64,000 bases of DNA from Escherichia phage RB32. Shown piece by piece: positions 15,628 through 17,450 of the stretch. Below the pieces are notes generated by a model that saw only the letters and a program-made list of their open reading frames with translations, had not been told where the DNA came from and made no database searches. The DNA lies in the sequence record NC_008515.1; one strand, 5' to 3'. The position numbers and the translations under genes are program-made. Position 1 is the first letter of the stretch. Each line of letters opens with the position of its first letter.

Positions 15628-16024
15628 ATACTCTATTACTAGAAGCCAATTGCAGTTTTATCTGCTCAATATCATCGGGGTTATCGATGACCGAAAAGCG
15701 TATTTCTACTATCAGAGTATAATCATCATAAACGGGTATCACATTAACTGATAATTTATCAATACGCGGCTCATAGTTTCTTACTGCGCTTTCGATATTG
15801 CGCTCAACTGTATCAGCAGTAAGAGGAGTCATATTTTCAAAAAGCTGGTCTGATAAATCACATCCAAATTCAGGGTCAAACGGTCTTGAACCTTTTCTTG
15901 TTGTAATAATTCCCAAAAGACTGTTTTTAATTGACCTTAATCCAAGTGATCTGGAAACATCTTTGTTCCAATCCATTTTCATTTCCGGGTCAATATCAGA
16001 ATAAAGCTTATTAATATTTGCCAT
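15626..16024 (-). CDS. 25: Baseplate wedge protein gp25
   Basis: 132 aa, same as T4 gp25; synteny with gene 26. Confidence 0.92.
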   Translation of the reverse strand: MANINKLYSDIDPEMKMDWNKDVSRSLGLRSIKNSLLGIITTRKGSRPFDPEFGCDLSDQLFENMTPLTADTVERNIESAVRNYEPRIDKLSVNVIPVYDDYTLIVEIRFSVIDNPDDIEQIKLQLASSNRV

Positions 16025-16650
16025 TATAGTAACTCAAAGAACTCTTTGAGGCCTCTTATTACGTGAGCATGGGTTTTTCCACACTCTGGACACTTAATTG
16101 GAACAGCCAAATAAACGGTAGGCTTTAAAAGCATATCTTTTATAGCTACAATATCTGACTCTGTGATGATAGAATATAAATCTTCTAGTTCCTTTTCATT
16201 TAAGTCTTCAACTGGAATGCTTTCCCCGTTAGCATGAATCGTTTCTATACATGATACTATCATGTGGGCTATATTTTTATCATCAAAAATTTTAGGGTAT
16301 CGGAATTTAATTTTAATGTCACCCAGTGTATACCAGAGGTCTTCTGGTGCATCTATTTGTGTGTGTAATAGATTTATATGGGTTGGTATTTCAGTTCCAC
16401 AGGTGCACTTCCAGGAGTTTTCGTGATTAACTTCGCCGAGAGAATGTGCCCATAAATGAATCAACAATAGTTCTGATTCTTGGCGGTTTAAATCTTTTGC
16501 ATTTGTGCAGTCTTTGATTAGCTTTTTAACAATTACTTCTACAGAACCATTATTTTTGGCAGTAATAAGTTCTAGATATTCTTTAAGCGTGAATGCGCGA
16601 CAATTGATTATTTTAGAACCAACTCTCACATCAAATTTGTATTCATACAT
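16024..16650 (-). CDS. 26: Baseplate hub protein gp26
   Basis: 208 aa; synteny. Confidence 0.9.
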
Positions 16651-16671
16651 ATTTAGCTCCTTTATTTATCA

Positions 16672-16683
16672 TATTTATAAATA
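16672..16683. promoter_or_regulatory. Overlapping divergent late promoters for genes 26 (-) and 51 (+) within the palindrome TATTTATAAATA
   Basis: TATAAATA reads on both strands inside a 12-bp perfect palindrome between the two divergent start codons. Confidence 0.55.
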
Positions 16684-16700
16684 GAATAAAAGGAGCATCT

Positions 16701-17450
16701 ATGGCAAACATTATTCGTTGTAAATTACCAGATGGTGTTCATCGTTTTAAACCATTTACGGTAGAAGATTATCGAGATTTTTTGTTAGTTCGAAACGATA
16801 TAGAACATCGGTCACCACAAGAACAAAAAGAAATAATTACTGATTTAATTGATGATTATTTTGGAGACTATCCGAAGACTTGGCAACCATTTATATTTTT
16901 GCAGGTATTTGTAGGGTCAATAGGTAAAACAAAAGTACCAGTCACATTCGTATGTCCAAAATGTAAAAAAGAAAAGACAGTTCCATTTGAAATATATCAA
17001 AAAGAATTAAAGGAACCTGTTTTTGATGTAGCTAATGTTAAAATTAAATTAAAGTTTCCTTCTGAGTTTTATGAAAATAAAGCAAAGATGATTACTGAAA
17101 ATATTCATTCTGTTCAAGTAGATGAAATATGGTATGATTGGAAGGAAATTAGCGAATCAAGTCAAATAGAACTTGTTGACGCCATCGAGATAGAAACATT
17201 AGAAAAAATTCTCGATTCAATGAATCCTATTAATTTAACATTGCACATGTCGTGTTGTAATAAGTATGTAAAAAAATACACTGATGTAGTAGATGTGTTT
17301 AAGCTATTAGTTAACCCAGATGAAATATTTACTTTTTATCAAATTAATCACACACTTGTAAAAAGTAATTATAGCTTAAATTCAATAATGAAAATGATTC
17401 CTGCCGAGCGCGGATTCGTATTAAAACTGATTGAGAAGGATAAACAATAA
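16701..17450 (+). CDS. 51: Baseplate hub assembly catalyst gp51
   Basis: 249 aa; synteny. Confidence 0.9.

Follow-up and report, generated by a model that had tools for sequence, protein, structure and literature searches.

A 12-bp palindrome as a probable shared bidirectional late promoter of genes 26 and 51 in T4-like phages

The 12-bp palindrome TATTTATAAATA, located in the spacer between the divergent genes 26 and 51, very probably serves as a shared bidirectional promoter of the T4 late type, in which the box TATAAATA would lie at −13 to −6 of each of the two divergent units. Strong comparative evidence from related genomes indicates that the function of the palindrome is real, and the element is deeply conserved. 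Gene 51 would be the first gene of the rightward unit, followed by hub genes, and the leftward unit would lead into genes 26 and 25. The two-way late promoter itself is not a discovery of the present work, as both the T4 literature and GenBank have contained it for some 35 years. What is new here is only how widely it is conserved, a range that takes in a shorter palindromic form in Aeromonas phages; the earlier finding in T4 is confirmed and left unchanged. The element may be regarded as a textbook-clean case, in which a single 12-bp sequence would drive both halves of the baseplate-hub gene cluster, and it illustrates how a minimal promoter consisting only of a −10-type element can be truly bidirectional.

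The element, its boxes and the flanking genes

The palindrome is perfect, being identical to its own reverse complement, and the initial annotation had reported it with the same sequence and at the same position, both of which were read back from the window (the whole stretch of 64,000 nucleotides that was analysed). The late-promoter consensus, said to be readable on both strands, is indeed found on each of them as TATAAATA (Table 1). The two boxes have 4 bp in common, namely the central, self-complementary TATA at 16676-16679. The dyad centre (16677/16678) is displaced by 2 bp from the midpoint of the two ATG codons, in agreement with the description of the element as lying midway between divergent starts. 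The start codons at 16650 and 16701 and their divergent open reading frames were found as described, and both gene names, 26 and 51, agree with the T4 record AF158101.6. In that record (T4 coordinate = window coordinate + 99,778), genes 25 and uvsY follow gene 26, and gene 51 is followed by genes 27, 28 and 29.

The palindrome TATTTATAAATA occurs once in the window, compared with 0.03 copies expected from dinucleotide-preserving shuffles. The single box TATAAATA is present in 19 copies, against 8.9 ± 3.0 expected, and 19 copies were reached by no shuffle. Within the 50-bp spacer between genes 26 and 51, the TATTTATAAATA element is the sole late-promoter consensus, and a search of this spacer for a sigma-70-like promoter gave none. 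The box is separated from the ATG by 17 nt on the gene 51 side and by 21 nt on the gene 26 side.

A T4 late promoter has no −35 element: it is made up of a lone 8-bp box, placed about one helical turn before the start and followed by an AT-rich segment (PMC2988020). The box occupies positions −13 to −6 (PMC1524935). The spacer presents the same arrangement twice. On each strand a perfect TATAAATA consensus is situated at −13 to −6 of the predicted start, no −35 element is present, and an AT-rich segment lies just downstream of the box. Each box stands directly upstream of a virion (baseplate) gene, 26 or 51, a position that is conserved among the relatives. The predicted starts, 16666 and 16689, face away from each other at a distance of 23 bp. 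From −17 to −6 the gene 51 and gene 26 promoters are identical, and only the downstream bases (−5 to +1) differ, reading GAATAA and TGATAA on the two sides, with A or T at five of the six positions in each. Therefore, the intrinsic strengths of the two promoters should be similar. Geiduschek and Kassavetis have cautioned that not all of the 50 listed T4 late sites are proven to be active in vivo (PMC2988020).

The central claim of the initial annotation, that genes 26 and 51 have back-to-back late promoters, is thus well supported by the consensus on both strands, by its being the only one in the spacer and by the lack of a sigma-70-like site there. Additional support comes from the invariance of the element across genera while its flanks drift, and from the annotations of M77695.1 and phage ASO78A, which are considered below.

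Table 1. Coordinates of the palindrome, the promoter boxes, the predicted starts and the neighbouring features (window coordinates unless indicated otherwise)
Feature	Position	Strand	Basis
12-bp palindrome TATTTATAAATA, with both late boxes	16672..16683		sequence; invariant in 52/57 related 26/51 spacers
Late box TATAAATA, gene 51 (−13 to −6)	16676..16683	+	sequence; annotated equivalents in M77695.1, MZ726795.1
Late box TATAAATA, gene 26 (−13 to −6)	16672..16679	−	sequence; annotated equivalents in M77695.1, MZ726795.1
Second, variant box GATAAATA, gene 26 direction, one mismatch	16663..16670	−	all Tequatrovirus spacers, no other sampled genus; annotated in M77695.1
Predicted start, gene 51 operon; A, 6 nt past box; 12-nt leader	16689	+	rule box = −13 to −6 (PMC1524935)
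Predicted start, gene 26-25 operon; A; 16-nt leader	16666	−	rule box = −13 to −6 (PMC1524935)
Shine-Dalgarno AAGGAG, gene 51	16690..16695	+	sequence
Shine-Dalgarno AAGGAG, gene 26	16657..16662	−	sequence
Gene 26, baseplate hub subunit, 208 aa; heads leftward late unit 26-25	16024..16650	−	ORF, AF158101.6
Gene 51, baseplate hub assembly catalyst, 249 aa; heads rightward late operon 51-27-28...	16701..17450	+	ORF, AF158101.6
Aeromonas 26/51 spacers with TATTTAAATA (n = 3)	1138-1191, 1137-1185, 1134-1185 of their retrieved loci

The geometry of the two boxes suggests how initiation might proceed. In the cryo-EM structure, the DNA is unwound from −12 to +2, and gp55 inserts the non-template residues A−12, A−9 and A−8 into pockets (PMC7892883). 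At the palindrome, the host RNA polymerase with the sigma-like gp55 would melt the same interval and flip the same three adenines, giving a bubble at 16677-16690 for the gene 51 promoter (+1 at 16689) and at 16678-16665 for the gene 26 promoter (+1 at 16666). The dyad centre would hold the two flipped A−12 residues, one on base pair 16677 and one on 16678, so that melting would nucleate at one spot and spread either to the right (to about 16689) or to the left (to about 16666).

Both boxes had been annotated long before. The GenBank entry M77695.1, an old 2.8-kb T4 record of genes 25, 26 and uvsY, contains a TATA_box for protein 51 at 768-774 that overlaps one for protein 26 at 772-779, as well as two further variant boxes for gene 26. 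The spacer in the window is base-for-base that of T4 in this record. Compared with the overlapping divergent late promoters P26/P51 of T4, the element and the annotated boxes are likewise the same and no substantive difference was observed, the window being derived from an RB33-like relative within Tequatrovirus and not from T4 itself. In phage ASO78A (MZ726795.1), both overlapping T4-type late promoters were marked by the annotators. A 1989 paper by Scarlato et al. (Virology 171:475) reportedly bears a title stating that 'overlapping promoters direct divergent transcription of the base plate gene cluster', and transcript mapping is said to have been reported both there and in the 1991 paper of Gruidl et al. 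The entry M77695.1 is most likely the record of the latter (Virology 184:359), since the title of that paper names the same three genes; the paper is cited in the reference list of PMC2988022. A full-text literature search for the 12-mer returned nothing relevant.

Conservation among T4-like phages and rival explanations

A query of 801 bp around the site matched about 500 Tequatrovirus genomes, with 100% identity to phage RB33 and 99% to T4. Of 57 related 26/51 spacers, 52 contain the palindrome unchanged, with gp26 identity extending down to ~38%, while the flanking spacer bases vary. We compared the 26/51 spacers of 13 representative phages from GenBank, whose gp26 identity ranges from 64% down to 29%, and the identical 12-mer was found in 11 of them. 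Its carriers belong to Karam-, Moon-, Mosig-, Jiaoda-, Marfa-, Dhaka-, Gapriver-, Muldoon- and Lazarusvirus, together with an unclassified Acinetobacter phage and T4. In a scan of IMG/VR with a 9-sequence gp26 alignment, the 12-mer was present in the spacer of all 41 loci.

The contrast with the surrounding bases is evident when 28 distinct sequences are anchored on the palindrome: all 12 of its columns are invariant and 59 of the 60 flanking columns vary, most of them with a majority-base frequency of 30-70%. The predicted +1 base is A in 32/32 distinct relatives on the gene 51 side and in 29/32 on the gene 26 side. The spacing from box to ATG in the relatives is ~15-24 nt for gene 51 and 16-22 nt for gene 26, except for 33-34 nt in two Acinetobacter phages. 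The invariance of the 12 bases is what would be expected from purifying selection on two overlapping promoters; thus, it does not by itself demonstrate selection for the overlap.

The departures from the 12-bp form are informative as well. In the Aeromonas phages phage 25, avDM9-HANS and Riv-10, the spacer contains the 10-bp palindrome TATTTAAATA, which places TAAATA / TTTAAATA on both strands and represents a shorter form of the two-way design. In Krischvirus GEC-3S, a 1-bp insertion (TATTTATAAAATA) breaks the palindrome and leaves the gene 51-direction box intact. The spacer of this phage is longer, 70 bp (locus 1131-1206), and transcription towards gene 26 may rely on ACTAAATA, located a few bases further on. 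Genes 26 and 51 do not form a divergent pair in Aeh1, in one cyanophage or in one Pseudomonas phage.

The same data bear on other explanations of the palindrome. Phage DNA of this kind is AT-rich, and about nine copies of TATAAATA per window are expected by chance, so that an accidental AT-rich palindrome might be considered. However, the 12-mer has an expectation of 0.03, it falls exactly in the spacer between genes 26 and 51, and it is invariant across genera. Its conservation in the relatives refutes a chance origin, to which we assign a practically negligible probability. It is also very unlikely that only one half of the palindrome acts as a promoter and that the other gene is served from elsewhere, for instance gene 26 by the variant box GATAAATA (16670 to 16663) or by read-through. 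This second gene 26 box does exist and is annotated in M77695.1, and variant late promoters can be used (PMC2988020). Despite this, the variant box is restricted to Tequatrovirus; the other genera that have the 12-bp form all retain the consensus palindrome. A start from GATAAATA, which is placed one base after the consensus gene 26 box, would land within the Shine-Dalgarno sequence, and read-through RNA is predicted to hide that sequence. For gene 51, neither a further consensus box nor a near-consensus one is present in the spacer.

Operators bound by dimers typically show perfect dyad symmetry, and the palindrome might therefore be conserved mainly as the site of a dimeric DNA-binding protein that regulates both operons, rather than for recognition by the polymerase. 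Precedents for proteins bound at late promoters exist in T4, where low-affinity A/T-rich sites of DsbA overlap two late promoters (PMC2988020) and I-TevI binds over its own late promoter and represses it (PMC2988022). We consider this explanation highly improbable. No known protein is assigned to the palindrome, and in the Krischvirus variant the symmetry is lost, yet the box towards gene 51 remains whole. Moreover, the symmetry arises automatically when two copies of TATAAATA overlap through their self-complementary TATA. A shared promoter for both genes is the reading that we retain.

Two further functions were considered and rejected. A cruciform is implausible for a 12-bp, all-AT palindrome without a loop, and a role as replication origin was dismissed as oriF is annotated ~1.1 kb away, near uvsY (AF158101.6).

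Competition and the choice of direction

The initial annotation expected the two initiation events to compete or interfere. Steric competition between the two initiation complexes is indeed a reasonable and plausible expectation, which follows from the geometry of the shared promoter. With starts located 23 bp apart and back to back, the complexes would cover nearly the same DNA and could not coexist. Both open complexes would occupy essentially the same ~60 bp, and both would melt 16677-16678. In T4 late complexes, gp33 cross-links at −39 and −36/−35, and gp45 is positioned at the upstream end, adding 13 bp (PMC2988020). Given this upstream reach, each complex would extend past the start of the other, which would make simultaneous occupancy sterically impossible. 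At sigma-70 bidirectional promoters, competition occurs only at high activity or occupancy, the basal activity being too low (PMC12825309).

Activation of late promoters requires a nick in the non-transcribed strand, and the orientation of the clamp sets the polarity (PMC2988020). The clamp-tethered polymerase is thought to scan the DNA in one dimension (PMC7892883), so that a complex of a given polarity would meet only its own box at the palindrome. We propose that in vivo it is probably the orientation of the gp45 sliding clamp, and not the DNA, that determines the direction, a point that is missing from the initial annotation. The clamp orientation would in turn depend on which strand held the nick or primer end at the loading site. 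If the clamp sets the direction, the symmetry of the DNA need not imply a random choice. The element is a good substrate for asking what determines promoter direction when the DNA offers no cue.

A more speculative possibility, which we regard as unlikely, is that perfect symmetry has been selected for and not just tolerated. The DNA between −17 and −6 carries nothing that distinguishes the two directions, and the choice of promoter would then be dictated solely by how the incoming gp45 clamp is oriented. This orientation differs between the leading- and lagging-strand daughter duplexes, and the element would, if the idea were true, read out replication polarity. The two baseplate operons would then be split between sister DNA molecules, or balanced, mutually exclusive bursts would be enforced. 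Such selection would also account for the maintenance of a two-way palindrome in two forms, of 12 bp and 10 bp, across the family.

Ribosome sites and related systems

The two Shine-Dalgarno sequences are complementary to each other, and consequently the spacer forms a larger inverted repeat, in which GCTCCTTT (16656-16663) corresponds to AAAGGAGC (16689-16696) over 8 bp. In the predicted folds of both strands, GCUCCUUU is base-paired with AAAGGAGC (z = −2.7 and −1.9), and both predicted late starts fall between the hairpin arms, inside the loop. The two starts are 1-5 nt upstream of the strong Shine-Dalgarno sequences, and late transcripts beginning there would lack the complementary arm that sequesters the ribosome site. 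Folding thus predicts that read-through RNA of either strand hides its Shine-Dalgarno sequence in the long-transcript hairpin, whereas in the late transcripts it would be free. Sequestration of the ribosome site has been demonstrated for genes 25 and 26 (PMC2988022), and at these genes it is therefore already known.

In this respect the spacer resembles the T4 genes e, soc and I-TevI (the arrangement is also reported for genes 25 and 26), in which a late promoter is located inside the hairpin and late transcripts lack the 5' arm. In contrast to e, soc and I-TevI, the 26/51 spacer has as its 5' arm nothing more than the complement of the Shine-Dalgarno sequence that belongs to the divergent gene, and the device would therefore work in both directions.

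Warman et al. (2021) are said to have described bacterial bidirectional promoters that arise from symmetry of the −10 element. In this class the divergent starts are 7-25 bp apart, with 18 bp the commonest distance and 10 and 23 bp also common (PMC12825309, PMC10268837). The separation of the predicted starts in the phage element, whose boxes share 4 bp, is 23 bp and lies within this range. In the bacterial promoters one short pseudo-symmetric −10-type element binds the polymerase in either orientation, with mutually exclusive occupancy, and the phage element would do likewise. The phage element is the gp55 counterpart of the bacterial class and not a member of it: the bacterial promoters rely on TATAAT-like symmetry read by the housekeeping sigma factor, whereas here an 8-mer with perfect symmetry is recognised by gp55, not sigma-70, at late genes. 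Further differences are the lack of a −35 or upstream element that could bias direction, and activation by a sliding clamp whose orientation can set it. In addition, both phage products are essential mRNAs, and neither represents antisense noise.

T4 has a second junction of two divergent late genes, the 47-bp spacer between genes 4 and 53 (T4 77338-77384). This spacer likewise carries a consensus box on each strand and holds a near-copy of the palindrome, TATTTATAAACA. Unlike those of the 26/51 spacer, which overlap back to back, the boxes between genes 4 and 53 are face to face and 7 bp apart, and the predicted 5' ends cross by ~5 nt instead of diverging.

Several minor features were observed within gene 26. 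In M77695.1 another variant box, TATGAATA, is annotated directly after the gene 26 ATG. An internal in-frame product of the gene, gp26', is annotated in the T4 record at 115802-116089, corresponding by homology to 16024-16311 of the window (− strand). A terminator-like palindrome, CTCAAAGAACTCTTTGAG, lies at 16033-16050, shortly before gene 25 begins at 16024 on the − strand, and agrees with the published hairpin that joins the split ribosome site of gene 25.
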